This document shows, one piece after another, positions 73 through 12,571 of a stretch of 12,652 nt of DNA. Positions within the stretch are counted from its first letter, which is position 1. Each line of letters starts with the position of its first letter. This DNA comes from a virus. The translations under genes were made by a program, and so were the position numbers. The stretch lies in the UHGV virus genome UHGV-0154273. One strand, written 5' to 3'. The notes under the pieces were generated by a model. It did not search any database. It had not been told where the DNA came from and saw only the letters and a program-made list of their open reading frames with translations.

Positions 73-834
73 GGAATCGGGCGGCGGCTCGTCTCTGACT
101 TTCTGGAAGCGAACCAAGATAAGTTTTCCCGCCAGACGCTGCAAAACTGGTTAACCTGCTTAGGGACGCTGTATGACTTCGCCCGGCGTAAATATGACAA
201 TATCGCCCCTGATAATCCCTTTCACGGCCACAATCTGGAAGCCCGCCAGACGAACGAAAGTTATCAACCTTTTGAACTACACCAGCTACAGGCATTAATA
301 AAAGAGGCAGGTAGCGAGATACGAGACGTAATCATAATCGGTTTGTATTCCGGTATGCGTCTCGACGAAATCGCCAGCATCAAACGAGTTGAGATTATCA
401 AAGTTGAAGGGGTACGCTGCTTCTACGTCAGCAAATCTAAAACTAAAGCGGGTGTAAGGCACGTCCCCATACACTCGCTGTTAATCAGCATCGTTGATAA
501 ATACCTTGCGCAGAACAACGGTGAATACCTGCTCCCCCAATCGAACAAGATTAAACGTGCCGACGGTAAGCGTGGCCCGTGGTACTCGCAGGCATTTACA
601 CGGCTACGCCGTCGCGTGCTGTCAGCGGCTACAGATCGCCAATGCTTCCACTCCCTGCGTGGTCACTTTATTACTTGCTTAGACAGAGCAGGAGTACCAG
701 AACAGCGCATAGGGGCAATAACCGGGCATACCGAACAAAAAGCTAAAACGGAAGCTTTCAGGACATATAGCAAGGGAGCAGGGATGAAAGAACTATGGGA
801 GTATGTGGAGTTGGTCAGTTATCCGTGTTTATAA
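73..834 (+). CDS. int: Tyrosine recombinase / phage-type integrase, 5'-truncated by the adapter junction (C-terminal ~254 aa present)
   Basis: Translation from 73 contains a core-binding-like region and a catalytic domain with conserved Arg (LYSGMRLDEI), HSLRGHF (His-x-x-Arg box) and a C-terminal GHTEQKAKTEAFRTYSKG with the candidate catalytic Tyr. The Met at 58 in the ORF track is encoded by adapter bases and is not a real start. Stop TAA at 832-834. Confidence 0.85.
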   Translation, partial: GIGRRLVSDFLEANQDKFSRQTLQNWLTCLGTLYDFARRKYDNIAPDNPFHGHNLEARQTNESYQPFELHQLQALIKEAGSEIRDVIIIGLYSGMRLDEIASIKRVEIIKVEGVRCFYVSKSKTKAGVRHVPIHSLLISIVDKYLAQNNGEYLLPQSNKIKRADGKRGPWYSQAFTRLRRRVLSAATDRQCFHSLRGHFITCLDRAGVPEQRIGAITGHTEQKAKTEAFRTYSKGAGMKELWEYVELVSYPCL

Positions 835-860
835 AAAAGGCGCTATAGCGCCTTTCTTTT
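833..860. terminator. Bidirectional intrinsic terminator between convergent integrase and 124-aa gene
   Basis: A-run (833-838), perfect palindromic hairpin GGCGCTATAGCGCC (839-852), T-rich run TTTCTTTT (853-860). Sits exactly between two convergent stop codons. Confidence 0.6.
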
Positions 861-1233
861 AAACATCAAAGATGACATCACCATGATACGCGTTAAACTG
901 CGGATTCCGCATGATGGTGATCACTTGCTGAACTACCCACTTTGCACCGATATCAAGTTCATGCTCTATAGCGCACGGTATAGCAATACCAGATTTCTGA
1001 CACTTGATAGTGAAGGAAAATCCCTCATCTTTGCCTAGAATTGTCTGCAAGTGTTGTCCAATGAAATTTGTAAAAATCACTCTCAACTCAGCTAACGTGA
1101 TTGGAGGTTTATTACGCGGATCATTAAGTCTATCAACAGCAAAATGAAATGACATCTTTAGCTTGGCTCTATCTTCTTCCAAGATATCGTTAATATCTGC
1201 AACTAAATCATCAATCTGCTGTTGAGTTATCAT
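859..1233 (-). CDS. Hypothetical protein, 124 aa; downstream gene of an AT-rich two-gene cassette (possible toxin/effector)
   Basis: ORF with ATGA start/stop overlap with the upstream 69-aa gene. Sampled 60-bp blocks are ~37-42% GC, lower than the rest of the element. No recognisable catalytic motif by eye. Confidence 0.55.
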   Translation of the reverse strand: MITQQQIDDLVADINDILEEDRAKLKMSFHFAVDRLNDPRNKPPITLAELRVIFTNFIGQHLQTILGKDEGFSFTIKCQKSGIAIPCAIEHELDIGAKWVVQQVITIMRNPQFNAYHGDVIFDV

Positions 1234-1439
1234 ATGTGTGCAGCCGTGATCTCAGCTAATTTCTTGTTCAACTCTTCATCGTTTGAAGCTGTGATGGTGC
1301 CTACAAATTCAGTGCGTGATAAAGTACCAGCACGCACATCGAATTCGTAGTTGTCAAACGAATCAACGACGACAAACGCCTTGGTTGCTGGGTTAAAAAA
1401 CGATGCACAATTTTGGTTTGTACGCATATCAAAGTTCAT
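1230..1439 (-). CDS. Hypothetical protein, 69 aa; upstream gene of the AT-rich two-gene cassette (possible antitoxin/partner)
   Basis: Strong SD (AGGAGGA) 4-5 nt before ATG at 1439. 4-bp overlap (ATGA) with the 124-aa gene indicates translational coupling. Confidence 0.6.
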   Translation of the reverse strand: MNFDMRTNQNCASFFNPATKAFVVVDSFDNYEFDVRAGTLSRTEFVGTITASNDEELNKKLAEITAAHI

Positions 1440-1536
1440 ATTATCCTCCTACCCCTTCAAGGGAGATGTAGGAACGAAGTATTCTCAAGTTGAAGCTCAG
1501 TTTGGAGACATATTAGGAAACTGTTTTATGCTCAGC

Positions 1537-1555
1537 CTACGCAATCTACGTCAAT
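1537..1555. promoter_or_regulatory. Tandem imperfect direct repeat CTACG(T)CAAT x2 in the upstream region of the 69/124-aa cassette; candidate operator
   Basis: ctacgcaat (1537-1545) followed by ctacgtcaat (1546-1555), ~100 bp upstream of the cassette start codon on the coding (minus) strand side. Confidence 0.25.
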
Positions 1556-1640
1556 CCGTCAAGAATTGTTTTAAATATAGGCAAGTAACAAGGCAGCCAC
1601 AACAACACATAACCGAATGAAAATAAAAGAAATAATCTCA

Positions 1641-2078
1641 TCACGCATGTTGTCTTGGATAAATAACGCCCAACCCCTTGTATTGTCGGCGGTAGGCAGG
1701 TAGCATGCTTAACATGCTACCTCGTGAGAGTCCGCACAAATTTCCCACATAATAACCACCTTCCGCTGCATTGGCCGAACGATGAACCACAGCGCGCACA
1801 CGTCCAGTTCGGTGACAGTGATCCAATACAGCAGACGCGAGGCGTAGCGGCTTAGCTGTCACCGCGCAGCGTCGGTATTGATAATTCCACAGGAAGACAC
1901 GGACAGCGGCCACATCAGCGCGGCGCAACTCCAGCCGTCCTGAACCATTCAACAGGAAGTGATACACATCATCGAACGCAGCAGAATTTTTAATGCGTTC
2001 CGCTAGCGGCATGTTGCCGAGATATTCCAGATAGCCTCGCATCGCTTTTCTTAGTAGTTGGTCTGTCCGTGTAACCAT
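1641..2078 (-). CDS. Hypothetical protein, 145 aa (last gene of long minus-strand operon)
   Basis: ATG at 2078 preceded by GGAGG SD at 8 nt spacing. Stop TGA 1641-1643. No recognisable domain. Confidence 0.6.
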   Translation of the reverse strand: MVTRTDQLLRKAMRGYLEYLGNMPLAERIKNSAAFDDVYHFLLNGSGRLELRRADVAAVRVFLWNYQYRRCAVTAKPLRLASAVLDHCHRTGRVRAVVHRSANAAEGGYYVGNLCGLSRGSMLSMLPAYRRQYKGLGVIYPRQHA

Positions 2079-2350
2079 GATTCAAAGCCTCCACTGTCAG
2101 ATGCAGCCCGTTTGCAGGCTTCGTATTCTTCGCGCTGGCGTTGGCATACCAGAGCATAAAGCTCGGCGGCCATCGCATTAACACGTTCGTCACTGATACC
2201 ATTGCGGCGCATCAGCCCCAGCAGCTTACGAAATTTAGCTTCAAGCTCAGGCTCTCCGGTATCCATTACCCACTGTTTCAGGTCAGCGAGTGCGCCAGTC
2301 ATTGGTGGCGGCTCGATGTACCGCCACCTTAATTTAATCGTGGTTATCAT
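2051..2350 (-). CDS. Hypothetical protein, ~99 aa (start refined relative to ORF track)
   Basis: ORF track start at 2398 is a TTG. In-frame ATG at 2350-2348 is preceded by AGAGGA SD at ~9 nt and gives MITTIKLRW... Overlaps the upstream gene stop by 17 nt and the downstream gene start by 28 nt. Confidence 0.5.
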   Translation of the reverse strand: MITTIKLRWRYIEPPPMTGALADLKQWVMDTGEPELEAKFRKLLGLMRRNGISDERVNAMAAELYALVCQRQREEYEACKRAASDSGGFESWLHGQTNY

Positions 2351-2759
2351 TTTCTTTATCCTCTCTGTAAGCCGGGTGCATTGCCCGGTATTGCTCAATG
2401 GTCAAACCCTCGCTGGCCGCTGCAAACCGTTCCTTTTGCTTACCCGCCAATCGCAAGGCGCTGTCTCTCCAGCAGAGCAGAAAGAAGATGGTCAGCACCT
2501 GCTTACTCAAGCCATCCAGAAGATCACCAAGCCCTTGCTCCAGAAGACAGGCACGCCATGCAGCGGCGTGCTCAGTCATAGCACCTACTATCGGGACAGG
2601 TGCTCCGAGCATTGTCGCAAGCTGACTCATAACACTGTTAGCATCGCCCGGATGCAGCCGTGGAATAGTCATGCGGCCAGCCTGCGCCAACAGTTCAGCG
2701 TACCGCTGGCGGCGCGGGTCATCATCTGCCAGCGCTCTAATCGGCTTTTCATCAGCCAT
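2334..2759 (-). CDS. Hypothetical protein, 141 aa (speculatively a small-terminase-like packaging factor given its HNH neighbour)
   Basis: ATG at 2759 with GGAGG SD 9 nt upstream. Lies immediately downstream of the HNH endonuclease gene. Function not recognisable from sequence. Confidence 0.55.
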   Translation of the reverse strand: MADEKPIRALADDDPRRQRYAELLAQAGRMTIPRLHPGDANSVMSQLATMLGAPVPIVGAMTEHAAAWRACLLEQGLGDLLDGLSKQVLTIFFLLCWRDSALRLAGKQKERFAAASEGLTIEQYRAMHPAYREDKENDNHD

Positions 2760-2777
2760 TAATGGAACCTCCGAGGA

Positions 2778-3305
2778 TTAGGCAGCCTGCAATAAATCGG
2801 CTGGCGTTGACGGATGGTATCTGGCTTTAGCTTTCAGGTACGCAGCACGCGCCGCCGCTTCGGTAGTGAATAAGCCGAGGTGATGGCGAACACCACCAAC
2901 GCGAATGTAAGCCTCCCATCTGCCAGAGCAGGCATGGTGGCTATAACCCTTGGCTTTGCGGTAATTGTGCTGGTTCTCTTGTGGCGTAACCGTGCGGAGA
3001 TTGATAAGGCGGTTGTCATCGCGTACCGCGTTGATATGGTCGATTTGCATCCCGGCAGGGATACCGTCATTAGCAATGATGAAGGCGACACGGTGGGCGT
3101 ATAGCGCATGAGATTTGCCATTGATGCGGACAGATACGCGCCTATATCCGGCGCTGTCCGTTACCGTGTCGGCCAGTTCCCCGGCTTTAGCGTAAATCCG
3201 CTTGTTGGCTCCGATCCGGTCTACTGCATGGAACAGGCGGCCAGTCTTCGCATCGTACCGAAACAAAGAGCGCAACAGCTCCGGGGCATAAGCATCAATA
3301 TTCAT
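2778..3305 (-). CDS. HNH endonuclease with C-terminal AP2-like DNA-binding domain (phage homing/packaging-associated type)
   Basis: HNH_3-type motif HRVAFIIANDGIPAGMQIDHINAVRDDNRLINLRTVTPQENQHN (His, Asn and His spacing typical of HNH). C-terminal GYSHHACSGRWEAYIRVGGVRHHLGLFTTEAAARAAY resembles the AP2 domain commonly fused to phage HNH nucleases. Confidence 0.85.
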   Translation of the reverse strand: MNIDAYAPELLRSLFRYDAKTGRLFHAVDRIGANKRIYAKAGELADTVTDSAGYRRVSVRINGKSHALYAHRVAFIIANDGIPAGMQIDHINAVRDDNRLINLRTVTPQENQHNYRKAKGYSHHACSGRWEAYIRVGGVRHHLGLFTTEAAARAAYLKAKARYHPSTPADLLQAA

Positions 3306-3321
3306 GGCTCGGCCCCTTTTG

Positions 3322-4317
3322 TTATGCAGCTTGTCGGAAATTTATAACGCAGTCAGGGCGGCGCAGCCCAACATTGAACAGGCGATATGAGTCCATCACC
3401 ATTGTCATTTCGCGTTCATCATCCCACTGGCGATTGATAACGCTCTGCGCTTCGACTGTCACAAGTACAGACGCAGGCCGGAACAGCGTCGCCCGTGTCA
3501 GCGCTTCCCCTGCGGTCACATCATAATCAGCGCCCAGTTCATGCGCGGTAATGGCTTCCTGCGGGTAACTGTTCAGCTCAATAACTCGCACCCCAGCGAC
3601 ATAGCCAACGCGACGCCATGCGTAATCATTGCCACTATCCCGGCTGTAACGGACGTTCATCAACTTCTTATGTTCCATCAGGATGCTGAACCAAGCTGGG
3701 TCGATGAGAAGGCACAGCTCCGCCACCGGAATATCTTTTTCAGTTAGGAATCGATTAACAGCAGCTTTAATAGCGTGAACCAGTTCGTTAGCCGCATCCT
3801 CTTCGCTCCCCGTTGTCAGGTCGAGCGAGACAACATTATCCGTCAGCGGGTTAAACGTTGGTTGCAACGTAGGCGGCGGTACAAAGTCAGTCGCTTTGAT
3901 TAGCTGGATAGTGTGCGCTTCGTCGTAGAACTTTGCATGGGCTGTCCCCATGTTGCGGCTCAGCTCTGCGCGAAAGGTGGGCGCTGTCCAGTCGTCTTGA
4001 TAGTCAATCGGGATGCGGATATAGCTCAGCGTATCCACAGAGATAATCAGCTTGTCCGACTTAACGGCGGTAGGCTCCAGCGATTGCCCTGCGGTTCTGC
4101 CCTTCACCTCCAGATCTCCGCTCAGGCGGTCTACACGATACTGATTACTGTTTTTCAGCGGCTTGTATGTGCTCAGCCCCTCGGCGAGAAACACGCTCTT
4201 TGCCTCAAGGCGGGTCTGAACGTCCCGGTCATACGCTTCAATGTGAATGTCGTTGTCAGCATCTACACCGCCCCAGTGCGGGCGGAATTGGTCAGGGGTA
4301 TAAACATTGTCAGTCAT
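3322..4317 (-). CDS. Conserved-looking 331-aa protein of unknown function; possibly structural (capsid-like), unverified
   Basis: Long clean ORF with GGGAG SD 8 nt upstream of ATG at 4317. No nucleotide-binding or nuclease motif seen. Sits between a Q/N-rich scaffold-like protein and the HNH endonuclease, a context typical of head/packaging modules. Product assignment is inference only. Confidence 0.7.
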   Translation of the reverse strand: MTDNVYTPDQFRPHWGGVDADNDIHIEAYDRDVQTRLEAKSVFLAEGLSTYKPLKNSNQYRVDRLSGDLEVKGRTAGQSLEPTAVKSDKLIISVDTLSYIRIPIDYQDDWTAPTFRAELSRNMGTAHAKFYDEAHTIQLIKATDFVPPPTLQPTFNPLTDNVVSLDLTTGSEEDAANELVHAIKAAVNRFLTEKDIPVAELCLLIDPAWFSILMEHKKLMNVRYSRDSGNDYAWRRVGYVAGVRVIELNSYPQEAITAHELGADYDVTAGEALTRATLFRPASVLVTVEAQSVINRQWDDEREMTMVMDSYRLFNVGLRRPDCVINFRQAA

Positions 4318-4385
4318 AGAAATAGCTCCCGCGCCAGCGTTAGCCAGCGCGATTTATGGAAAAGGGGAAAAGAGAATGGGATGAA

Positions 4386-4733
4386 TCAGGCAGCAGCTTT
4401 TTCAGCCGCGATCTCAAGAATCAGGCCGATAAGCGCGAAGGCAGGCCAATGGGGATTAAGCTCGTGCAGGTGCGCAACGCCCCCACCAAAAGCATCGCGC
4501 ATATCAGCACCAGAGATGCCCGCGCGTTTGGCCGCCCGGCGCAGCAATCGCAGCTCGGAGCCGGGAACATACGCCGAGGGCATACGCACGCCGAAGCGTG
4601 AGGCGAGCCGCCGCCAGTGCGCTTCGTCAGCAAAGTCCTGCTTAAGCTGGCTGGCGTTGGCTTTCCAGTGTTCAATCCTCGCGCTACGGGCAGCCCTAGC
4701 CGCTGCCACGTTTTCAGGTGTCAGTAAGGTCAT
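4386..4733 (-). CDS. Hypothetical protein, 115 aa, Arg/Ala-rich with hydrophobic C-terminus
   Basis: ORF in operon orientation. Weak SD. C-terminal WPAFALIGLILEIAAEKAAA could be a membrane or amphipathic segment. Confidence 0.5.
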   Translation of the reverse strand: MTLLTPENVAAARAARSARIEHWKANASQLKQDFADEAHWRRLASRFGVRMPSAYVPGSELRLLRRAAKRAGISGADMRDAFGGGVAHLHELNPHWPAFALIGLILEIAAEKAAA

Positions 4734-4812
4734 TGTCAGATCTCAATGCAAAGTGGGTTTATGTGTGGTGTTTGAGAGGTAATTTCGCGTTTTACAGGTG
4801 CAGGTATACGAA

Positions 4813-4832
4813 TGTACATCTGGCGATGTACA
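4813..4832. promoter_or_regulatory. Inverted repeat TGTACAT-N6-ATGTACA in intergenic gap between the 228-aa and 115-aa genes
   Basis: Perfect 7-bp arms (4813-4819 and 4826-4832) with a 6-nt spacer. No U-run follows on the coding strand, so a binding site or attenuator-like hairpin is more likely than a terminator. Confidence 0.3.
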
Positions 4833-4892
4833 ACGCGATTCAGGCTCTAAAACGTAAGGTTAAGACGTGGGGAAGACAGGACAGGCGATTGC

Positions 4893-5579
4893 TTAACGGC
4901 CAGCGCGTTTGCCAGCGGAGCGCTGCGCAACCAGAGCGCGGTATTGATCGTCGTACTGGCGATGGCCGGGGCCATACCCTGATTGCTGCGCCCACTGCGA
5001 AAGCTGATCATACGCTGCAATAAACTCAGCATGAGACATACCAACAGGTTGCGAGGCAGGCTGGCCGTATGGGTTCCCCTGTGATGGGACATAACCAGTC
5101 GCAGTGCCTGCGACCATACGCTCTTGCAGATAATGAACCGCCCGCTGCATCTGCGCAGGGTCGCCAGACATAACCATCCGTTCAAGGGTTGATTGCGTCC
5201 CGGCGTCGAGCGTGCCAGCGTACTGCAACATCGCGTCAACTGTCCCCTGCCCTAGCTGGCTTTCGACAGACTGGTGAAACTGCCCCATCAGCCCATGAAG
5301 TTCAGGAGTCAACTCAACAGTAGTGCCATCCTGTAATTGCAGCGTGTCGCCCACTTGCGCAGCAACATCAATCTGCTGGTCTTGCTGGTTGGCAAAGTTA
5401 CTTTCGTTCCAGCTTTGATTAATGTTCGCTGGCTGCGTTTTCAGGAAATCAGCATCAGGTGTTGTCTGGTCGAATCTGCTAGCGCCGTTGTCAGCGCCTA
5501 CAGGTGCGGCCATGTACGGCGATTGCTGCGGCGCAGTATCAGCGCCCGAAAGGTACGGATTAACATTCTGGTCAGCCAT
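4893..5579 (-). CDS. Q/N/G-rich low-complexity acidic protein, 228 aa (scaffold-, decoration- or mimic-like; function unknown)
   Basis: ATG at 5579 with AAGAGG SD ~10 nt upstream. Composition strongly biased to Gln, Asn, Gly, Asp and Thr, with predicted disorder. Immediately follows the stop of the upstream HTH gene. Confidence 0.65.
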   Translation of the reverse strand: MADQNVNPYLSGADTAPQQSPYMAAPVGADNGASRFDQTTPDADFLKTQPANINQSWNESNFANQQDQQIDVAAQVGDTLQLQDGTTVELTPELHGLMGQFHQSVESQLGQGTVDAMLQYAGTLDAGTQSTLERMVMSGDPAQMQRAVHYLQERMVAGTATGYVPSQGNPYGQPASQPVGMSHAEFIAAYDQLSQWAQQSGYGPGHRQYDDQYRALVAQRSAGKRAGR

Positions 5580-5581
5580 GA

Positions 5582-5821
5582 TTATGCAACCTCTTGTGAT
5601 GTAACTCGGCGATGTGCCAGTTCAAGTAAAAGCATGTGCGCGTGTACGCATCGGGCAGGAATCATCTTCTGTCCGTGGTACGCTTTGCCGAGATCTTGTC
5701 TGTCGATCTGGTACACATGAGCCAAATCGATTTGACGAAGATTCAAGGCTTCGGCAATGAATTTCAGTTGTTGCCCGCAATCAGCCGCGCGGCGTGGCTC
5801 CATTAAAATAATGGTGCTCAT
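5582..5821 (-). CDS. Putative small HTH (XRE/Cro-like) DNA-binding protein, ~79 aa (start refined)
   Basis: ORF track start at 5863 is a TTG. ATG at 5821 has GAGGA SD at 7-8 nt. Segment LKFIAEALNLRQIDLAHVYQIDRQDLGKAYHG has a helix-turn-helix-like pattern. Confidence 0.5.
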   Translation of the reverse strand: MSTIILMEPRRAADCGQQLKFIAEALNLRQIDLAHVYQIDRQDLGKAYHGQKMIPARCVHAHMLLLELAHRRVTSQEVA

Positions 5822-5835
5822 GAAATAATCCTCAG

Positions 5836-6069
5836 TTAGATAAGGCCATGACGACGCAACCAACGTCGCTCGCCAACGGAGCCACGCGGTCGCTGCCTTG
5901 GATTCTGGTTTGGTGCTTGGCCGGGATCAGTTCGCCCTTCCCCGGACAGGTTCTGTGTCAGCACATCCCAGCCGCGTGATTCAAACGGGGCGTATCCCTC
6001 GCGCTGTTCGTCAAGGTTCACATAGAGATCAGGGTTAACGGCAGGGTGCAGCGGTTCGTTCTCTGCCAT
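5836..6069 (-). CDS. Hypothetical protein, ~77 aa
   Basis: ATG at 6069 overlaps the upstream stop (TGATG). The track's extra N-terminal Met comes from a GTG at 6072. Confidence 0.45.
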   Translation of the reverse strand: MAENEPLHPAVNPDLYVNLDEQREGYAPFESRGWDVLTQNLSGEGRTDPGQAPNQNPRQRPRGSVGERRWLRRHGLI

Positions 6070-6805: not shown

Positions 6806-7008
6806 TGCTCGTCATCCTCAAATACACGGTTAAATGACGTGTCCGGCGCTTCTACGGCATTGGCCTTAAGGAAGTTGACCGCACTGGATAACTCCGCTGC
6901 GGCCATGCGCGACTCACCAGCCTTGTCTTCCTCAAGGCGGCGGATTAGCGCCCCAAGAAGCAAGCCTTTCATTCGCCACGTTTCATTTTCAAACTCGGTT
7001 TTAGTCAT
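6802..7008 (-). CDS. Hypothetical protein, 68 aa
   Basis: ATG at 7008 lies within ATGACTAA, which also contains the stop of the upstream 145-aa gene. Confidence 0.5.
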   Translation of the reverse strand: MTKTEFENETWRMKGLLLGALIRRLEEDKAGESRMAAAELSSAVNFLKANAVEAPDTSFNRVFEDDEQ

Positions 7009-7438
7009 GCGGATTAACTCCTGTCAGCCCCATTACGCGCAGGTACTGGATTACTTCGGCGTGTACTGGTTTTGGTAAAAAGAGGCGACGCTGCACAGAT
7101 TGAAATATCTCGTCGCGCGTCTTGTTGGCAGGGTGAACAGTCCCATTAAAGACCTCACGAGCCATGCGATAGGTCGGCCAAAGACGAGCGCCATCCTCCC
7201 GGCGTCGGAATCTATTCAGCACAGCGGCCAGACATTCCCAAGGCTCACAGTGATTGAGCAGGCAATACCGCTGTAGCGGCGTACCAGCTTGGCGCAAGAT
7301 GGCCGCACGATTAAGAGTCTGGCGGTGGCGCTCAGCTAACCCATCGAAGGAATATCCGTTCAGGGCGAAGGCAAGTTGTGCGGTGACGAGCGCATCCGCA
7401 CGCGTAGCACGACGCTGCGCATGTTCGGTAACAGGCAT
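7001..7438 (-). CDS. Hypothetical protein, 145 aa
   Basis: ATG at 7438 with TGGAG SD ~8 nt upstream. Follows the helicase stop after a 38-nt gap. Confidence 0.6.
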   Translation of the reverse strand: MPVTEHAQRRATRADALVTAQLAFALNGYSFDGLAERHRQTLNRAAILRQAGTPLQRYCLLNHCEPWECLAAVLNRFRRREDGARLWPTYRMAREVFNGTVHPANKTRDEIFQSVQRRLFLPKPVHAEVIQYLRVMGLTGVNPHD

Positions 7439-7476
7439 ATGGATTAACTCCAGAGAATGAGGGGGAGCCTTTCGAC

Positions 7477-9321
7477 TCAGAGGTATTTAGCGATGTACTG
7501 CCAGTTGCAGTTTTCAGGGCGGTAGAAGTAAGCAAGCTCATCAGGCGCAGCATCCAGCGCCAGCGATGACCACAGCAGAAACGCGCGGGCAGGTTGACCA
7601 TCGCGCCCGGCTCGTCCAATCATCTGAATGAGGTCAGGCAGGTCATCAGGAATATATGTAACGATGACGTTGCGAATGTCTGGCACATCAGCCCCCAGCC
7701 CGAAGGCTTTAGTAGCAATCAGAATTGCGCCCGGCGTAGTGGCAAACCACTCAGCGTTTGCGTGGCGTTCTTCGTTACTCAAGTGCATCGTCTTCGAGTG
7801 ATATGGGCGCGCCCGGTCGCCTAAGAGTTTCAGGTACGCCCGCAACGTCTTAAGGTCATTGACGAGAATGAGCGTCTTCTCTTCTTTCGGCAGAGCCTCG
7901 ACCAGACCAATAGCCGCTCGGAAACGTTCGCGGCACTGTCTGACTGTCGTCAACTGGATATTTTCGCGAGCAACATCAGCACGGAATGTTACGTAATCAC
8001 CACGGCAGCCAAGCGACGCCATTAAACTGCGCTCATTTTCGCGTAGCAGCGTAGCCGTAAATACGCAGCGTTGAGCCGAAAGAAAGGCATGTTGTAGCGA
8101 GTGCTGCATGGCCTCGTAAGCGGGTCGGAAATCCCAGTCTTTAACCGTGTGCGCTTCGTCGATGATAAAACGATCAACGCCGTAAGCCATCAGCGCCGCG
8201 AAGACCTGACTCGACAGAACAAGATGCTCAGGTGAAACGACAGCAACACGGAACGCCCCGGCAGCCAGCCCCGCGAGTTGTTGAGCGTTGCGGTGCCTCG
8301 GCAACTTGTCACCGAATGCCACAGCGTGAACGCCAGCATCCCGCAACTGGCGGAGAATCTGGCGCTTTAGGGTATTAGTGGGAACCACGATTACAGACAG
8401 GCCAACGCCAGCGCGGGACTCATAAATCAATGGATAAGCGAAGGCGGCGGTCTTGCCATAACCCGTAGGCAGAACGGCCAGCACATCACTACCACGGGAG
8501 AAGATCGCATCAGCAACAGACAACTGCCCCGGCCTCCACTCCAGCCCATCGGGTGGCAACAGGCTAACGCGTGCGTTTCGGTCACAGCGAACCAGCGGGC
8601 GAAACTCATAAGAGGCTGTATTCAGTGACGGCACAGACGGCGACACTGCCAAGCCGTTTGGGTCACAATGATGATTTGTACTGTTAAATTTATCCTCGGT
8701 AGGTTTCGACTCTCCACACCACAATTGACGAAACTCCGCTGAGTCCCCGTAGCGTTTGAAATCTGAATTGCGCATCGCTTCCAGTTTATTCATGCCCCTG
8801 TTGATGCGGTGTATAGTCTTCTCATCACAAATCAGGAACTCGCGGCAGGCTTTGAGAAAAGCATTCTGCCCGGTTGTCGATGCCGAAACGGCGTGCTCGC
8901 GCGGTTTCAATGCGGCATCATCTACGCGAACACCGGGAAAATCAGGCGGCAGCGGGTCAGCATACCGAGCAGGCTTCTTGTTGAGCCACATTTCTATCTC
9001 AGCGCGTCGGCAATGAATTGCGTCACCGGGCTGGATGACTTGCCGCAACCCCGTGTCAGAGCGCTGTTTTTGCTTCTTCGGTTGAACACCATGCAGCGCT
9101 CGCCATTCCCGCAGGGTCATAGCGGAGCCATCAGCATTGTAATAAAACTCTTCGGTCTTCGTGTTGTATGCCGCCTTAACGGGTTTATGCTTTATCGGGC
9201 ATATCTTGGAACGCCGAATAACAATCCCGTCAGCGACCATTTGCTGTACATCTGCGTTTGCGGTATTGAGCGGGTCAGCGTCGGCAGCCTGCGCAAGCAA
9301 ACGGCGTAGGTTCGTTGGCAT
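7477..9321 (-). CDS. RecQ-family superfamily-2 DNA helicase (DEAH box) with an unrecognised ~280-aa N-terminal domain; likely replication helicase of the element
   Basis: Helicase motifs read directly: RPGQ (Q-motif-like), LPTGYGKTAAF (Walker A/motif I), SPEHL, IIDEAHTVKDWDFRPAY (DEAH motif II followed by the RecQ-typical aromatic-rich loop), FTATL (motif III), MIGRAGRDGQ (motif VI). No RQC/HRDC tail. ATG at 9321 with GGAGA SD 9 nt upstream. Confidence 0.9.
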   Translation of the reverse strand: MPTNLRRLLAQAADADPLNTANADVQQMVADGIVIRRSKICPIKHKPVKAAYNTKTEEFYYNADGSAMTLREWRALHGVQPKKQKQRSDTGLRQVIQPGDAIHCRRAEIEMWLNKKPARYADPLPPDFPGVRVDDAALKPREHAVSASTTGQNAFLKACREFLICDEKTIHRINRGMNKLEAMRNSDFKRYGDSAEFRQLWCGESKPTEDKFNSTNHHCDPNGLAVSPSVPSLNTASYEFRPLVRCDRNARVSLLPPDGLEWRPGQLSVADAIFSRGSDVLAVLPTGYGKTAAFAYPLIYESRAGVGLSVIVVPTNTLKRQILRQLRDAGVHAVAFGDKLPRHRNAQQLAGLAAGAFRVAVVSPEHLVLSSQVFAALMAYGVDRFIIDEAHTVKDWDFRPAYEAMQHSLQHAFLSAQRCVFTATLLRENERSLMASLGCRGDYVTFRADVARENIQLTTVRQCRERFRAAIGLVEALPKEEKTLILVNDLKTLRAYLKLLGDRARPYHSKTMHLSNEERHANAEWFATTPGAILIATKAFGLGADVPDIRNVIVTYIPDDLPDLIQMIGRAGRDGQPARAFLLWSSLALDAAPDELAYFYRPENCNWQYIAKYL

Positions 9322-9436
9322 GGTGAAATCTCCAAAATTAAGGTGAGTTTAGAACGAGGCGCAGGACGGCAGCGCCGAGCTGCCCGTAGAGAGAATTTCA
9401 TGTCAGCAGTGACGTTGAATGTTCTGTCCCTCTTTA

Positions 9437-9462
9437 GTAGTGACTTTCATGTAGGTCACTAC
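9437..9462. promoter_or_regulatory. Perfect 8-bp inverted repeat GTAGTGAC-N10-GTCACTAC upstream of the helicase operon; candidate operator
   Basis: Arms at 9437-9444 and 9455-9462, ~115-140 bp upstream of the helicase start codon on the coding-strand side. Confidence 0.35.
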
Positions 9463-9510
9463 GTATGCACAAGCGAGTGGTGTTCGTTTTGCCACAGTAG
9501 AAACTCTAAT

Positions 9511-9529
9511 TTGATTATTTTTTAATCAA
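9511..9529. promoter_or_regulatory. AT-rich inverted repeat TTGATTA-TTTTT-TAATCAA in helicase-recombinase intergenic region
   Basis: 7-bp arms (9511-9517 and 9523-9529) with a 5-nt T spacer, within an AT-rich stretch that may hold the operon promoter or an origin-like region. Confidence 0.25.
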
Positions 9530-10211
9530 CACCTTTGTAAGCCTTGCCCTGTCTGACTTGATGAATGATTTGCTGATAACTTTCAGTAGGTTTGTTGGGA
9601 TGCTGGGATGTAAGGGGTTATAAGCGGCATTGTGAGTACCATATCCCAATATAGTACCGTACCACTACTCTATCCCCGCCGCGTTGACTGCCTGGCAAGC
9701 ACGGTTGCGTGGAGGGCCGAGCATCACAGCGGGCGAAGGCCGGGAATGAGCCAAAGGCGATGGAGCGGGCTGGAGCATAGCGAGAAGCGCAGCCAGTGTA
9801 GAGCGAAAAGCGATAACACTGATTAGGAGAAGGGATGAAAGGGAAGAACCCTTTTCTGTACATGTATTTTAAATGCAACTTTAAAGGTAAAACGAAGGTG
9901 TTGCCCTGCTTCAAATCTAGCTGAGTGATTGGACAACACAGCCTTTGATCCCTTCCCCTGCCCCATCCCTCGAATTGTTCAGTGATAAATCACATTCACA
10001 ATCTGATCTTGATACTCATCGTCTGGCACGGCTAAAGCCCCGCCATCTCTTCATATCAAGAGCCGCAAGTAATACGGAAATACATTATAAATCATACCAT
10101 TACGAGATTAGGCATAACATAAATATCTGATATCAATACAAAAGCTGTAGGCCATCCATCACCCACAGCCCAGTAACGGCCAGTGCTGGCATCTCATCAG
10201 ACTGTAGGTCA

Positions 10212-10844
10212 TCACTCTGTAACGCTGGCGGACAGCTCACGTTTGATACGGTAGAACGTTGCCCGGCTTATCCCGGCAGCTTTCATGATGTGCTCTGGTT
10301 TATTCCCAACGGTAAGCATAGCGCGGACAGTTTCACGGGCGCTCTCATCCTTAGACTTCCCGTTATATTTCCCCTCGGCTTTGGCACGCTTGATGCCCTG
10401 CGCTTGGCGTGCTCTGCGTGTCTCGTAGTCCACTCGTGCCATCGTAGCGAGGATATCAATCAGCATTGCGTTAACAGCTCTCAGGATGCCCTCTGTAAGC
10501 TCTGACGCCGTATCGTTCAGTAGTTGCCATGAGGTTGGCAGGTCAACGGCAACGATCACCAGTCCCTTATCCTGAATCCTCTGTTTCAGTGTCGCCCATT
10601 CCTTTTGCGTAAGGCGGCTTAGCCTGTCGATGCTCTCGACAAGCAAGACCTCTCCGGCCTGCGCATCATCCAGCAAGCGCATTAGTTCAGGACGCGCCAG
10701 CCTCGCACCGCTGGCGTTCTCGATGTACTCCGCCCGTACAGGCCAGCCCCGATCACTGGCGAACTCTCGCAGCAAGCCCAGCGCCCGGTCTGCGTGTTGC
10801 TCTGATGTACTGGCGCGGCAATAGATAAGCGCATTGTGTGCCAT
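10212..10844 (-). CDS. Serine recombinase of the resolvase/invertase family, 210 aa
   Basis: N-terminal catalytic region with YCRASTSEQ (Ser nucleophile motif), RPELMRLL and LLVESIDRLSR, which parallel Hin/resolvase motifs. C-terminal HTH (KAAGISRATFYRIKREL). ATG at 10844 with G-rich SD. Confidence 0.85.
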   Translation of the reverse strand: MAHNALIYCRASTSEQHADRALGLLREFASDRGWPVRAEYIENASGARLARPELMRLLDDAQAGEVLLVESIDRLSRLTQKEWATLKQRIQDKGLVIVAVDLPTSWQLLNDTASELTEGILRAVNAMLIDILATMARVDYETRRARQAQGIKRAKAEGKYNGKSKDESARETVRAMLTVGNKPEHIMKAAGISRATFYRIKRELSASVTE

Positions 10845-10970
10845 GCTTCCCCCTAAGTCTCAATGAAATATCACAGCAAGACCTATAAGAGATCACATCA
10901 ATAATGTGTAGTCAATAGAGTTTTATAGATAGTCAAATGAGACAGTGTGTCTATGTCTTTATCAGGTATA
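10845..10970. promoter_or_regulatory. Candidate res-like / autoregulatory region upstream of the serine recombinase gene
   Basis: Short repeats directly upstream of the recombinase start: direct repeats TAGTCAAT (10909-10916) and TAGTCAAAT (10930-10938), palindrome AGACA-GTG-TGTCT (10940-10952), repeated ATCACA motifs (10870-10900). By analogy with Tn3-family res sites lying just upstream of tnpR; inference only. Confidence 0.25.
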
Positions 10971-11561
10971 CCCGAAAGAGACTGGCACCGCCCCACAGCA
11001 GCATTCCCCGGCACATCCAGCGAACACAGCGTAGAGCGCACGCAGCAGATCAGCACGGCACCGCCACGATCTCGAAATCACAAAGGCATTGAATCACACA
11101 TTGGAAGCACAGAACGCAGCACAGAGCGATACAGATCGTTTTAGAGGGATGTACAGATACACAGTGAAAGGCAGATGATCGCAGCACTCGTCCCACACGG
11201 TTATTCAGCAACAGCAATCAGCCAGCATCTCGCTCAGTAGCACGCTCCTGTAATGCTTGTCTCGGATGAGCAAAATCTTAGGGTTTCTCAGCGACCCCTG
11301 ACGCGCGGGCACGCACATGCACACGGGGGCGCGGGCGAGCTATAGAGTTGAGGGAGGGGCAACCATAAGCGTGCAATTTTCAAGCTGGGACTTTTAACAG
11401 TGGGATTGTGGGGCTGTTTTGCATTCAGAGAGTGAGGCTGTGGGGGAGCCCTCCTTGAACCAAATAATGCGAAACTGATCATTCTTCCACGTAGCTTAGG
11501 CCACTTTGCATGGATAATTAGCACCAAACACAGCAGCCAGTTTAAGAGAAATGCGCGACAT

Positions 11562-11780
11562 CTACCGTCTGCGTTTACCCCAGCGCTGCATTATGGCTCT
11601 GTGTGCTTCATCCGCTGACCATTCAATAGGTACAACAACGTGTACAGGCATTTCATCGCCAGAGGGGGCACCACGTAAATGGACTCTATACCCTAGTTTA
11701 TTAAGTTCTACCTCGGACATCGGTGATATAACCTCGCCGCTATGGCTGCCGCCAACAAACTCAGCTTTAAAATCCAACAT
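11562..11780 (-). CDS. Hypothetical protein, 72 aa
   Basis: ORF whose ATG (11780-11778) is preceded, 1 nt away, by a 9-nt homopolymeric G tract on the coding strand. The plus-strand ORF 11551-11874 covers the same DNA; the minus strand is preferred because of operon orientation but this is uncertain. Confidence 0.4.
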   Translation of the reverse strand: MLDFKAEFVGGSHSGEVISPMSEVELNKLGYRVHLRGAPSGDEMPVHVVVPIEWSADEAHRAIMQRWGKRRR

Positions 11781-11781
11781 G

Positions 11782-11790
11782 CCCCCCCCC
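11782..11790. repeat. Homopolymeric tract C9 (G9 on coding strand) abutting the start codon of the 72-aa gene
   Basis: Nine consecutive C at 11782-11790. Potential slipped-strand phase-variation site or assembly-error hotspot. Confidence 0.9.
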
Positions 11791-11823
11791 TACACACTAA
11801 CAAGAATCATTGAAGGTGTATCA

Positions 11824-11841
11824 CCCAGCAACTACGCTGGG
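11824..11841. promoter_or_regulatory. Hairpin-forming inverted repeat CCCAGC-N6-GCTGGG between the 153-aa and 72-aa genes
   Basis: 6-bp arms (11824-11829 and 11836-11841). No immediate U-run, so terminator function is uncertain. Confidence 0.25.
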
Positions 11842-11870
11842 CAGAACATCACCTCGGACTATCAATCAAC

Positions 11871-12329
11871 TTAGTATCGCTTTGTGTCTCGTAGTATTAC
11901 AGACAGTAACCACCACCATTGGCGTTTGATCCAACAAACATCACTGAACATCTTGCCGTCAGATGTTTTGATATAAACCCCGCCACGATGATGCACTTTG
12001 TTGTGATGAGCCTTATTTATGAATGGCACGTTCAAGACCATTTCGTCTCGTGCTTTCAATCTTTTTGGCAGCATCGGTGTGATCATGTTCTCGTCCGAAT
12101 ATTCGTCGGATAACATTCTAAGGCGTCCACTGGCTGTTACCACACCGGCTGCACTCAACGTTACATCGTGTGCGCTTATGTTCGAAACGTATATCCTGTC
12201 CTCGTGCTGATCACATCCGAGATAAAGCCTTAGCGATGTTCTGGATTTTAGTAATTGAAATACGGACAAAGCAAAACCCGCCCACGCCGCGATCCCTGTC
12301 CAGTTATCTGTTTGGGTGATCCAAGTCAT
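11871..12329 (-). CDS. Predicted membrane-anchored protein, ~152 aa (N-terminal transmembrane helix), in AT-rich cassette
   Basis: ATG at 12329 overlaps the stop of the upstream 75-aa gene (TGATG); the track's start at 12332 is a TTG. N-terminal hydrophobic segment WTGIAAWAGFALSVFQLL. Sampled blocks ~37-40% GC. Confidence 0.6.
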   Translation of the reverse strand: MTWITQTDNWTGIAAWAGFALSVFQLLKSRTSLRLYLGCDQHEDRIYVSNISAHDVTLSAAGVVTASGRLRMLSDEYSDENMITPMLPKRLKARDEMVLNVPFINKAHHNKVHHRGGVYIKTSDGKMFSDVCWIKRQWWWLLSVILRDTKRY

Positions 12330-12556
12330 CAAGGCTGCATCCCCTTCGACATAAGATACTTAACGATCCCTTCTCGTTGCCTATTACTCAGCTGAAAACA
12401 TTTGTCTAGTTGAGATAAAACCTGCTCGACATCATCTGCCAAGATGGCACTAGCTGCACGAGCGGGGAGATCTCCCTGAATTTTGATAGTGAAATACCCT
12501 GAAGATATTGATAGCTTCAAAAAACAACCTGCTGAGAACTCGTAACTCTCGCTCAT
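12329..12556 (-). CDS. Hypothetical protein, 75 aa, first gene of right-end AT-rich cassette
   Basis: ATG at 12556 with AGAGG SD 7 nt upstream. Its promoter would have to lie beyond the compositional junction at ~12557-12571. Confidence 0.5.
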   Translation of the reverse strand: MSESYEFSAGCFLKLSISSGYFTIKIQGDLPARAASAILADDVEQVLSQLDKCFQLSNRQREGIVKYLMSKGMQP

Positions 12557-12571
12557 AACCGCCTCTGTTGA

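Follow-up and report, generated by a model that had tools for sequence, protein, structure and literature searches.

An Escherichia coli chromosomal island with its own podophage-type capsid and scaffold genes is probably a phage satellite

Extent of the island and its variable arms

The window (the whole 12,652-nt stretch of DNA analyzed here) holds about 85% of one copy of an E. coli chromosomal island of ~14.8 kb. Positions 72-12576 are 100% identical to E. coli NZ_LR536431.1, except for 549 bp (9709-10257) that are missing there through a deletion between 5-bp GTTGC repeats; the coordinates first proposed for the element, 73-12571, agree with this genomic part. Bases 1-71 are an Illumina TruSeq index adapter, and ~12572-12652 is a foreign tail (76-81 nt, 72% GC) that reads as a PEP-carboxykinase-like peptide, so a chimeric contig, the outcome that was to undo the original prediction, was found only trivially at the tips and not for anything between them.

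The plus-strand gene at 72-834 (ORF 58-834) encodes the C-terminal ~254 codons of a tyrosine integrase (PF00589, E = 1.9e-10), convergent with a long minus-strand gene array, both as originally described. The contig stops before reaching the 5' part of this gene and the distal att site, a truncation due to the contig and not to biology; the full gene has about 406 codons (408 aa in locus L002). In NZ_LR536431.1, the sole complete genome with exactly this copy, IS1 removed the distal att site along with the start of the integrase gene, displacing only the first ~4 codons (the annotation is a 360-aa ORF from an internal ATG), and the island there is stranded. About 90 E. coli genomes appear to retain only a 5.6-kb stump, of which one example was examined.

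Related islands are integrated at the 3' end of tRNA-Gly(ccc) or tRNA-Leu(caa) via the tyrosine integrase, between tRNA repeats of 24-31 nt, and carry two cargo slots that often contain defence genes (restriction-modification systems, AbiTii). In the window, slot 1 consists of two minus-strand genes, 859-1233 (124 aa; phrog_14518, E = 4e-65) and 1230-1439 (69 aa; phrog_14630, E = 4e-39), from families of unknown function; a tblastn scan (E <= 1e-5) of 13 other family loci found neither of them. Relatives with listed genes in this slot have Eco47II and NmeDI restriction-modification systems, AbiTii, a DUF3606 protein plus a hypothetical, or a hypothetical. Slot 2, the tRNA-proximal arm (11562-12556, minus strand), has genes of 72, 153 and 75 aa for which family searches gave no match, the 153-aa protein having a hydrophobic N-terminus. 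This arm runs ~1.3 kb past the window to tRNA-Gly(ccc) in NZ_LR536431.1, and its content varies among relatives (Rap1a, DUF3800 and others).

Capsid, nuclease and helicase genes of the core

Between the slots, all genes lie on the minus strand. The gene at 3322-4317 encodes a 331-aa major capsid protein (MCP) with an HK97 fold of the T7/phiKMV type (phrog_267, E = 2.8e-67; solved podophage capsid chains, E = 4.8e-78). It is 57.7% identical to the capsid protein of Escherichia phage forsur, a Bonnellvirus, and the nearest phage capsids are those of Bonnellviruses, at 51-58% identity among those sampled; its dN/dS is 0.08. A short scaffolding protein of 228 aa is encoded at 4893-5579 (dN/dS 0.12-0.18): its C-terminal half matches the head-scaffolding family phrog_1018 (E = 5e-5), and its last ~100 residues align to residues 309-409 of the 410-aa forsur scaffold (hhalign E = 5.8e-5, probability 66%). 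The slot between scaffold and capsid is variable. Here it holds a 115-aa gene (4386-4733; phrog_21723, E = 1e-52, unknown function) that was not detected in 5 of 13 relatives scanned; L002 has a 137-aa weak-HTH protein instead, and L005 a 160-aa homologue (64% over ~77 residues) with an extra weak C-terminal HTH.

A 68-aa gene at 6802-7008, beside a 58-aa gene (6629-6805), gave four weak signals that point to one family, the small terminase (TerS): PF11123 (T7 gp18 family; E = 3.3e-4, under the cut-off), phrog_891 (E = 3.8e-3), a tblastn match within the forsur TerS gene (47% over 32 aa, E = 0.005) and an hhalign match to residues 15-58 of forsur TerS (E = 8.5e-5, probability 60%). At hhalign probabilities of 60-66%, the putative homologies of the TerS-like and scaffold proteins to forsur proteins are weak.

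Two nucleases belong to the same array. The HNH endonuclease of the original prediction lies at 2778-3305, directly downstream of the capsid gene (HNH_3, PF13392, E = 1e-13; phrog_99, E = 3.5e-48). Its matches are spread across 1,877 phage records; the best-ranked, with 35-48% identity, come from 44-kb phages that are mostly Autographiviridae. The second, at 1641-2078 (1641-2042 with the RefSeq start), is a junction-resolving nuclease of the endonuclease VII type (PF02945, E = 3e-6; phrog_423, E = 3e-15), found in all 13 relative loci scanned. Its best phage relatives come from 40-49-kb genomes, mostly phiKMV-like Pseudomonas podophages, in which the gene adjoins an exonuclease gene.

The RecQ-like helicase and the resolvase that had been named were both recovered. 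The 614-aa SF2 helicase (7477-9321) has DEAD (E = 2e-22) and Helicase_C (E = 2e-14) domains, and residues 261-585 match RecQ structures (E = 7e-31). Its N-terminal ~260 residues are family-specific: the only homologues found share 67-95% identity and, when a source is named, come from Enterobacter and E. coli; the AF2 model has a pLDDT of 37. PADLOC labels the protein DpdF (889 bits) and found no other dpd genes beside it; its function is presumed to be replication. The resolvase is a 210-aa small serine recombinase of the resolvase/invertase group at 10212-10844 (PF00239, E = 7e-25; phrog_125, E = 3e-40), with a 28-bp res-like palindrome upstream of the gene (10955-10982). The non-coding region between resolvase and helicase (9322-10211) includes a 262-nt block (9950-10211) that is 86-91% identical in L002, L007, L008 and L009 and lies inside an 82%-identical match in L011, making it a candidate origin or recombination site. 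This spacer also has a terminator-like hairpin (10171-10142) and a sigma70-like site (9541-9514), in counts no higher than chance.

The remaining core genes are small and conserved. Those at 2051-2350 (99 aa) and 2334-2759 (141 aa) are family-specific and without family matches (dN/dS 0.10-0.21; AF2 model all-helical, pLDDT 60), and homologues of the 141-aa protein occur only on Enterobacteriaceae chromosomes. Two genes at 5582-6072 (~79 and 78 aa), also without family matches, were tblastn-positive in 13 of 13 relatives scanned, with dN/dS of 0-0.09. A 145-aa family-specific gene (7001-7438; no matches, dN/dS 0.10-0.20) keeps its position, as does, in all relatives, the gene for a 187-aa candidate regulator (6069-6632) with a C-terminal HTH (sub-threshold HTH_ParB, Sigma70_r3 and HTH_23 at residues 139-176). 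The latter is the one HTH protein with a family signal, so the "many small regulators" reported earlier are weakly founded.

Searches of Pfam and PHROGs detected no primase, large terminase (TerL), portal or tail genes in the window, as had been stated. The island has no recognizable replication initiator or primase and no conjugation or mobilization gene; no induction switch was identified, and a helper-type promoter was sought there and not found. The family as a whole lacks genes for a portal, a large terminase, virion core proteins and a tail, and no locus has kept any phage gene beyond the reduced set.

A genome-end signal and a size-constrained family

We searched 50,697 phage records by blastn and observed that 11312-11389 (minus strand) matches non-coding DNA of five ~42-kb podophages (E = 9e-8). 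Two of these carry a taxonomy line naming Bonnellvirus, and three are unclassified with the same junction region. In phage J8-65, whose GenBank record lists a direct terminal repeat of 259 bp, the alignment straddles the beginning of this annotated repeat, which is also where the mature DNA would end. The island sequence thus resembles a pac/ter-like genome-end junction, with a predicted mature 5' end at 11351 on the minus strand, …CCCCTCCC|TCAACTCTATAG…, and only the left boundary of the phage repeat is mimicked. The motif is single-copy in the window and in forsur, and it is the sole conserved block amid otherwise unalignable DNA between island and phage (core 68% identity, flanks 39-46%). 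Of the 20 loci with full synteny, 19 carry it (L001, the window and 18 relatives; L033 was left out of the scan), among them an island lineage whose MCP is just 60% identical. In the loci measured, it lies about 240-450 bp upstream of the start of the resolvase gene. A resolvase gene adjoins it in every relative, in several divergent types (26-98% identity). The isolation hosts of phages with this junction are Escherichia, Enterobacter, Kosakonia, Cronobacter and Pantoea.

The gene order was the same in 20 of 21 family loci fetched, from five genera (E. coli, Enterobacter spp., Kosakonia, Kluyvera and Trabulsiella), at tRNA-Gly or tRNA-Leu: end-signal, resolvase, helicase, small genes (including the TerS-like gene and the HTH protein), short scaffold, MCP, HNH, two small genes, endonuclease VII and integrase. 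MCPs are 92-97% identical across genera, and there are at least two deeply diverged lineages (60% MCP identity). Four of the genera that yielded junction-carrying phages (Escherichia, Enterobacter, Kosakonia and Cronobacter) also harbour islands or the 141-aa marker, as do Citrobacter, Klebsiella and Phytobacter. Copies with both att sites, proposed earlier as a check, do exist: 13 att-to-att copies span 14,471-15,158 bp although their cargo differs (mean 14,808 bp, SD 225, for 12 copies). The mean is 0.35 of that of Bonnellvirus-like genomes (42.0 kb, 18 records), the same ratio as for P4/P2 and SaPI1/80α. In comparisons with three relatives, every core gene has a dN/dS of 0.00-0.29; the core is functional and under purifying selection, not decaying. 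Bonnellvirus genomes lack counterparts of the helicase, the resolvase and about eight of the small genes.

A probable satellite and the alternative readings

The original prediction left the element type unresolved, with nothing capsid-related seen. Its gene list was correct but incomplete, as it overlooked the T7-like MCP, the scaffold, endonuclease VII, the TerS-like gene and the end-signal mimic. With an MCP, a TerS-like protein and a scaffold encoded, the island can be assigned a type. To judge from sequence, it has the hallmarks of a satellite: tRNA att sites, a constrained size of about one-third of a candidate helper and, apparently from that helper's lineage, capsid genes and an end-junction mimic. 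Its own head-shell and scaffold genes, together with a Bonnellvirus DNA-end signal, therefore indicate that the island is probably a phage satellite. We favor, with a probability of about 0.62, a satellite of a virulent Bonnellvirus-like podophage (Autographiviridae, ~42 kb) that builds its own shell and takes the tail, portal and large terminase from that phage. With an MCP identity to known Bonnellviruses of only 58%, a relative not yet sampled could be the true helper. The earlier view that this is neither a complete prophage nor P4-like stands, as searches revealed no gene for Sid, Psu, Delta or alpha. The island also falls outside the definitions of capsid-forming PICIs, as claimed, and of SaPIbov5, but it is near to both in logic, closer to the former than had been supposed. 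The family appears to be undescribed, as was suggested, no published description having been found in the literature, and it is probably a new kind of phage satellite that rides in small capsids.

In such a satellite, helper infection would lead to excision of the island, which would replicate with its own RecQ-like helicase and probably with polymerases of the helper or host. The island would supply its capsid protein and a scaffold half the length of that of the helper, retaining a helper-like, coat-binding C-terminal end, and from these, small procapsids that fit one-third of the helper genome would form around the helper portal/core; judging from the genome-size ratio alone, they are probably T=4 and not T=7. 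The helper large terminase, possibly redirected by the island mini-TerS, would recognize and cut the island at the junction mimic (11351/11352) and fill the small heads, and helper tails would complete the particles. To prepare island DNA for packaging, endonuclease VII may remove its branches; the HNH nuclease might aid cleavage or attack the helper, and the resolvase with the res-like site beside the end-signal might re-circularize or resolve the DNA.

We consider it unlikely that the island is instead a defence island that phages do not move, spreading by other means, in which the capsid and scaffold homologues poison podophage head assembly, the end-signal is a decoy that titrates or misdirects terminase and the nucleases cut podophage DNA. 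Both cargo slots of relatives carry defence genes (restriction-modification systems and AbiTii among them), tRNA-Gly and tRNA-Leu are known defence hotspots, and the HNH and endonuclease VII nucleases and the DpdF-like helicase would suit this role. However, a decoy needs no size limit, and 13 copies with varied cargo all fall within 14.47-15.16 kb, one-third of a phage genome. Moreover, the near-identity of MCPs over five genera, with att sites and integrases intact, implies that some vehicle transfers the island horizontally and efficiently, and the island encodes no conjugation or mobilization function. Interference is also compatible with hitch-hiking; known satellites do both.

Less probable still is a satellite of a different or additional helper, or one packaged as multimers in helper-sized capsids with the island MCP serving, for example, to exclude the helper genome. 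The modest MCP identity to sampled Bonnellviruses leaves room for another helper, and capsid-forming PICI capsids are known to take the tails of unrelated phages (10.1101/2025.02.11.637232); yet the end-signal matched Bonnellvirus and no other phage group in the records searched. Three island lengths (3 x 14.8 = 44.4 kb) approach the helper genome of ~42 kb but slightly exceed it, and a dedicated, shortened scaffold with a coat-binding C-terminus is what would be expected for a shell of a different size.

Finally, a decayed temperate Autographiviridae-type (T7-like) prophage that lost its RNA polymerase, DNA polymerase, portal, tail and terminase is very improbable: the MCP, scaffold, TerS-like, endonuclease VII and HNH proteins do match Autographiviridae (the top-ranked phage matches for MCP, endonuclease VII and HNH, the last with relatives in many other phage groups too), an integrase and a tRNA att site exist, the NZ_LR536431.1 copy is damaged by IS1 and the 549-bp deletion, and about 90 E. 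coli genomes appear to retain just the stump, but the window and 20 of the 21 loci share one reduced gene set and order across five genera and at least two diverged lineages, with no additional phage gene in any of them, purifying selection on all core genes, a tightly conserved size and a helicase, resolvase and small genes foreign to Bonnellviruses.

A 4.6-kb fragment, L035, may represent a third island lineage. IMG/VR gave a single match, a provirus-type contig with chromosomal flanks.

Extent and gene content of the island

The contig carries artefactual tips. Positions 1–71 are an Illumina TruSeq index adapter, CAAGCAGAAGACGGCATACGAGAT-CGTGAT-GTGACTGGAGTTCAGACGTGTGCTCTTCCGATCT (index CGTGAT), and from ∼12572 the GC content rises from 44% to 72%, in a tail of ∼80 nt (12572–12652) that departs from the E. 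coli locus and translates to …RVYLVNTGWIGGGYGV, which we take to be a PEP-carboxykinase-type motif. The adapter and the foreign GC-rich tail suggest that adapters were left unclipped and that the assembly took in a chimeric read or a contaminant. The real genomic part between the tips is 72–12576, and the limits of 73–12571 in the original prediction were thus exact. This part is 100% identical to E. coli NZ_LR536431.1 except for 549 bp (9709–10257) that are missing there. The whole element had no megablast match among 50,697 phage records, so it corresponds to no known phage or prophage record.

In NZ_LR536431.1, the element is flanked by an IS1 copy and tRNA-Gly(ccc), beside actS-xdhA. The 549-bp gap (21633–21637 of the fetched locus, L001) is bounded by 5-bp GTTGC microhomologies and takes the last ∼11 resolvase codons together with a conserved 262-nt non-coding block. 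Since relatives retain most of the 9709–10257 segment, the window represents the ancestral state. The IS1 (L001 10841–11553) displaces the first ∼4 integrase codons, the promoter, and the distal att site, which leaves that copy stranded. The deletion and the IS1 in the integrase show that the NZ_LR536431.1 copy is decaying. At one end of the window, the first ∼150 codons of the integrase are missing together with the distal att site, and at the other ∼1.3 kb, including one further gene and the tRNA; a tRNA scan found none within the window, as the tRNA lies beyond it. The copy in the window is therefore incomplete, and mobility is lost in the nearest complete genome.

The integrase, RecQ-like helicase, HNH endonuclease, and resolvase that had been recognized from the sequence were all borne out by Pfam, PHROGs, and RecQ structures, and Pfam and PHROGs agreed that primase, large terminase (TerL), portal, and tail genes are lacking. 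The original prediction had, however, overlooked the genes for a capsid protein, a scaffold, a small-terminase (TerS)-like protein, and endonuclease VII (EndoVII, 1641–2078). The capsid gene (3322–4317) encodes a major capsid protein (MCP) of the T7/phiKMV type (phrog_267, E = 3e-67; solved podophage capsids, E = 5e-78). Its nearest phage relatives are capsids of Bonnellvirus phages of E. coli/Enterobacter, with 57.7% identity to that of forsur (42.5 kb). The last ∼100 residues of the scaffold (4893–5579) align with the last 100 of the 410-aa forsur scaffold (E = 5.8e-5), a homology visible by hhalign alone, and the 68-aa TerS-like protein (6802–7008) gave four independent weak matches to small terminases of the T7 gp18 type, including forsur TerS. 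By tblastn against forsur, the MCP alone matched strongly, with a weak match within the TerS gene. EndoVII and HNH have more distant matches in 40–49-kb phages, many of them Autographiviridae, and HNH relatives are also common in other phage groups. Portal, TerL, tail, core, and lysis genes were found neither in the window (Pfam, PHROGs) nor among the Pfam/RefSeq-annotated genes listed for 10 relatives.

The helicase (7477–9321) is covered end to end over residues 111–614 by the PADLOC DpdF model PDLC02858 (889 bits), and defence-finder pipelines may therefore label it as part of a Dpd system (7-deazaguanine DNA modification). We rejected such a system because the DpdF-like helicase occurs without DpdA/B/C or further Dpd proteins: the Dpd models matched none of the nine other window proteins scanned with PADLOC, and no window gene belonged to a Dpd-type family in Pfam or PHROGs. 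The small proteins had no match in NCBIfam, and their sole PADLOC match, BrxE on the 145-aa protein (13.8 bits, E = 0.009), was not meaningful. AlphaFold models were unusable for the N-terminal 265 aa of the helicase (pLDDT 37) and, for the all-helical 141-aa protein (pLDDT 60), too weak for a fold search.

The end-signal and other non-coding sites

When the non-coding right part of the window was compared with the 50,697 phage records by distant blastn, only five ∼42-kb podophages matched, all at 11312–11389 (minus strand; 79% over 78 nt, E = 9e-8). Two of the five have a Bonnellvirus classification. The remaining three, without a classification or a stated taxonomy, share the junction region, which is 94% identical to that of megetsur, a Bonnellvirus. 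On the phage genomes, the match falls within the long non-coding stretch that separates the last late gene (endolysin) from the first early gene, directly behind the former. The GenBank record of J8-65, another Bonnellvirus phage, annotates the genome ends as 259-bp direct repeats (1–259 and 40723–40981), and its annotated left end (TCGACCCGAAGG…) aligns exactly behind the conserved …CCTCCC of the motif. The homology of the island motif to the Bonnellvirus terminal-repeat junction is clear. On the minus strand of the island, CTTGAAAATTGCACGCTTATGGTTGCCCCTCCC|TCAACTCTATAGCTCGCCCGCGCCCCCGT spans the aligned cut position (11351/11352), and the predicted left end of the island would start 5'-TCAACTCTATAG… at 11351.

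As the terminase of T7-like phages acts at the concatemer junction, we read the 78-nt motif as the predicted packaging and cleavage site of the island. The motif occurs once in the island and once in the phage, and a multi-copy phage promoter was rejected for this reason. It was present in 19 of the 20 full-synteny loci, with one locus (L033, E. coli E2348/69) outside the motif scan, and where measured it lies ∼240–450 bp upstream of the resolvase start. It is the sole alignable block there, with a core identity between island and phage of 68% versus 39–46% in the flanks. The resolvase accompanies the motif in every case.

The interval from the predicted DNA end to the resolvase gene contains a 28-bp imperfect res-like palindrome, GTCTCTTTCGGGTATACCTGATAAAGAC (10955–10982), which lies ∼110 bp upstream of the start of that gene and is followed by the repeats TAGTCAATAGAG and TAGTCAAATGAG in a layout that resembles a res site. 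Immediately downstream of the resolvase is the 262-nt AT-rich non-coding block (9950–10211), which is conserved at 86–91% in four relatives and at 82% inside a longer match in a fifth, while the non-coding DNA around it is alignable in patches only. Within the block, the 15-mers ATCTGATCTTGATAC and ATCTGATATCAATAC form a pair at a distance of 124 bp, and the block is a candidate for an origin or a site of recombinase action. A 26-bp near-perfect palindrome, GTAGTGACTTTCA|TGTAGGTCACTAC (9437–9462), lies 115 bp upstream of the helicase start; it was rejected as a family operator, being confined to this copy and absent from 16 relatives. In the spacer between the scaffold and the next gene, the motif AAACGCGAAATTACCTCTCAAA (4792–4771, minus strand) is conserved by eye, with one indel, in the deeply diverged locus L005 and has no counterpart in phages, including forsur; it may act as a promoter or regulatory site specific to the island.

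A scan of the window for promoters of the T7/T3/SP6/K11 type gave a single site with seven mismatches and none that was credible, and a search of the forsur genome for repeated promoter motifs gave nothing usable. Counts from sigma70 promoter and terminator scans of the window were not above those of shuffles, and an Rfam scan found no RNA family. No induction switch, replication initiator, or helper-type promoter was identified in the island.

A conserved family of constrained size

The same gene order was found beyond the window in 20 fetched loci from E. coli, several Enterobacter spp., Kosakonia, Kluyvera, and Trabulsiella; it was established gene by gene for thirteen relatives and the NZ_LR536431.1 locus, and from gene lists for the remaining loci. 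The order is end-signal, resolvase, variable DNA, helicase, 145-aa protein, TerS-like protein, 58-aa protein, HTH protein, two small genes, scaffold, a variable slot, MCP, HNH, 141-aa and 99-aa proteins, EndoVII, cargo, and integrase. L005, whose MCP is 60% identical, retains this plan with the HNH gene relocated upstream of the helicase, and a 4.6-kb fragment with an MCP also at 60% (L035) retains the capsid-to-integrase part. The copies are integrated at tRNA-Gly(ccc) or tRNA-Leu(caa), with att repeats of 24–31 nt and integrase types that match the site. All core genes had dN/dS values of 0.00–0.29 against three relatives. The cargo between EndoVII and integrase is variable: Eco47II or NmeDI restriction-modification, AbiTii, or, in the window, two small genes with PHROG matches only.

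Att-to-att length was 14,471–15,158 bp in 13 complete copies (mean 14,808 bp, SD 225 bp, n = 12); the two cargo arms vary by kilobases yet offset each other. This narrow range is the kind of constraint expected of a fixed-volume capsid. Bonnellvirus-like records averaged 42.0 kb (n = 18), an island/phage ratio of 0.352. The same ratio holds for P4/P2 and SaPI1/80α, in which the satellites occupy T=4 and the helpers T=7 heads; SaPI1, at 15 kb against 44 kb for 80α, is about one third of its helper, as the island is of its putative helper. The family thus shows two features of satellites, a size constrained to a fraction of the helper's (0.35 of 42.0 kb) and, in the window and the 10 annotated relatives, an incomplete set of virion and packaging genes.

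The capsid gene was found in 59 of 5,426 complete E. coli genomes and the end-signal motif in 147. The excess of the motif probably reflects 5.6-kb att-bounded stumps in ∼90 E. coli genomes, one example of which was examined. In E. coli JE86-ST02 (L032, 10571–16169), this mini-element at tRNA-Leu carries the end-signal motif, resolvase, a further HTH protein, and three genes without assigned function, and lacks the capsid, scaffold, helicase, and an internal integrase; it represents a stump left by deletion or else a minimal hitch-hiker. In the EPEC reference strain E2348/69 (CP059840; L033, 6443–21504), the copy at tRNA-Leu is intact and 15,061 bp long; its cargo is an AbiTii-domain gene, and its capsid gene is annotated "hypothetical protein". 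Intact copies are also present in E. coli LD26-1 and NCTC11023, and "hypothetical protein" is the PGAP label of the capsid gene in several genomes examined.

Weighing these observations, we give a probability of roughly 0.6 to the view that the element belongs to a new satellite family that encodes its capsid shell and parasitizes Bonnellvirus-like phages. The earlier view that it fits no known class and might represent a new family stands in part, and the satellite reading supersedes its "type unresolved". A different helper, or the packaging of multimers in full-size heads, is possible though unlikely. The cargo and nucleases would also suit a pure defence island in which the capsid and end-signal act as decoys, an unlikely reading that leaves unexplained both the size constraint and the occurrence of near-identical copies across genera without a conjugative function. 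A decayed T7-like prophage is highly improbable, contradicted by the conserved synteny across deeply diverged lineages, by purifying selection, and by our finding no richer relative. Scans of IMG/VR for the helicase and motif returned one provirus-type contig only and so provided no virion evidence for the satellite.

Comparison with known satellites and proposed mode of propagation

The satellites described from Enterobacteria (P4-like, PICI, cf-PICI) exploit temperate phages of ∼40 kb (PMC12772148). That commentary of December 2025 and an Enterobacter mobilome paper of September 2026 (PMC13612085) cover P4-like, PICI, cf-PICI, PLE, and jumbo-phage islands only, and in the literature, of which our coverage was incomplete, we found no description of satellites of T7-like virulent phages or Autographiviridae, or of these proteins.

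Like cf-PICIs (10.1101/2022.09.08.507074), the element is a chromosomal island with an integrase, its own MCP, an HNH nuclease, and a small-terminase-type protein (MCP and HNH strong, TerS-like weak), with presumed satellite-sized heads, a need for a helper for the rest, and near-identical copies across genera. The cf-PICIs encode a complete set of head and packaging genes, listed as portal, protease, head-tail connectors, TerS, and TerL in a quotation in PMC13612085, and steal tails only; we found no portal, prohead protease, connectors, or TerL in the window or the 10 annotated relatives. Unlike cf-PICIs, the island has a capsid of the T7/phiKMV type with a separate scaffold, and its putative helper is a virulent podophage rather than a temperate siphophage.

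The island scaffold resembles CpmB of SaPI1, a short alternative scaffold with the C-terminal end of the helper scaffold, and the island encodes a homologue of the helper capsid protein, as SaPIbov5 does with Ccm (PMC8569155). It differs from SaPIs in host phylum, helper family, and capsid lineage, in having a RecQ-like helicase as candidate replication module instead of Pri-Rep, with no Stl-type repressor recognized, and in a signal that mimics a T7-type terminal-repeat junction instead of pac or cos. With respect to classical Gram-negative PICIs, an integrase is present, and AlpA and primase were not found.

P4-like satellites share with the island an enterobacterial host, tRNA integration by a tyrosine integrase, hotspots of defence cargo, and a genome about 0.35 of the helper's; P4 carries the DNA-end recognition sequence of its helper, to which the 78-nt motif would be the putative counterpart. 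However, no Sid, Psu, Delta, or alpha primase-helicase was found among the Pfam/PHROG matches of the 21 ORFs treated as genes, and P4 combines the helper capsid protein with an external scaffold, whereas the island has its own capsid protein and an internal scaffold. Similar to PLEs of Vibrio cholerae, which parasitize the strictly virulent phage ICP1, the island would exploit a virulent phage, and it carries a serine recombinase; PLEs also deploy nucleases alongside hijacking (PMC9410903, PMC8096241) and form small capsids (PMC10945586). In PLE, however, a large serine recombinase integrates and TcaP remodels the helper coat, while the island has a tyrosine integrase, a small 210-aa serine resolvase, and its own coat protein, and we found no sequence relationship to PLE and no Pfam or PHROG match to a PLE-type module (RepA, TcaP/NixI/CapR).

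With Bonnellvirus phages (J8-65, forsur, megetsur, and others), the island has in common the MCP (57–58% identical), the scaffold C terminus, the TerS motif, and the 78-nt motif, and relatives have EndoVII- and HNH_3-type nucleases. Only the phages have ∼42-kb genomes with RNA polymerase, DNA polymerase, primase/helicase, portal, core, tail, TerL, and lysis genes, and only the island has the integrase, resolvase, RecQ-like helicase, and cargo. The absence of RNA or DNA polymerase, portal, tail tube/nozzle, and TerL sets the island apart from an Autographiviridae phage or prophage. The island would work most like a cross in which having its own capsid protein is the cf-PICI trait, and the alternative scaffold and the Ccm-type homologue of the capsid are the SaPI traits. 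Its distinctive traits would be a virulent podophage as putative helper and a T7-type terminal-repeat junction as signal.

We propose that infection by a Bonnellvirus-like phage would induce the island, which would be excised and replicated. Its own capsid protein and short scaffold could then build small procapsids on the helper portal and core, and helper TerL would cut and package island DNA at the mimic site, perhaps guided by the mini-TerS, before helper tails are added. EndoVII may clear branches ahead of packaging, and HNH might be a cleavage partner or an anti-helper weapon. That the resolvase and res-like site re-circularize the terminally repeated DNA is attractive but speculative. 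The fullest version of this proposal, to which we give slightly less than an even chance, is that of the first Autographiviridae satellite family, with a novel division of labour. The satellite would supply no more than the shell (capsid protein and truncated scaffold) and a mini-TerS, and would take its portal, core, large terminase, and tail from the helper. Its DNA would be cut where it mimics the terminal-repeat boundary of the helper, and on entry the resolvase/res pair adjacent to that site would re-circularize it in a Cre/lox-like manner. Such a family would be intermediate between capsid-remodelling satellites and cf-PICIs and common in Enterobacteriaceae, E2348/69 included.

T7-like virulent phages are workhorses of phage therapy and biotechnology, and E. 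coli K-12 was the isolation host of the candidate helpers. If the islands hijack Bonnellvirus-like phages, gaps in the host range of such phages and their failures to plate would be explained, and restriction-modification and Abi systems would travel between genera with the islands, which would also offer a natural system for a change in T7-type shell size and, for engineering, a packaging signal defined to 78 nt. Software that relies on the marker sets of known satellites is likely to overlook the family.

A separate island of ∼4.4 kb occupies the same tRNA-Gly site in E. coli 5735 (CP154887; L002), duplicated either side of the satellite. It encodes a 544-aa integrase, a DUF4145 protein, and two genes without assigned function. 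Upstream of a 163-aa gene, it has a pair of near-perfect promoters for T7 RNA polymerase, TAATACGACTCACTATAGGGAAAG and TAATACGACTCACTAAAGGGAGAG (4886–4910 and 4995–5019), 109 bp apart, with a second copy of the pair at 23899–24032. The ∼4.4-kb island looks like a T7-infection-triggered module.
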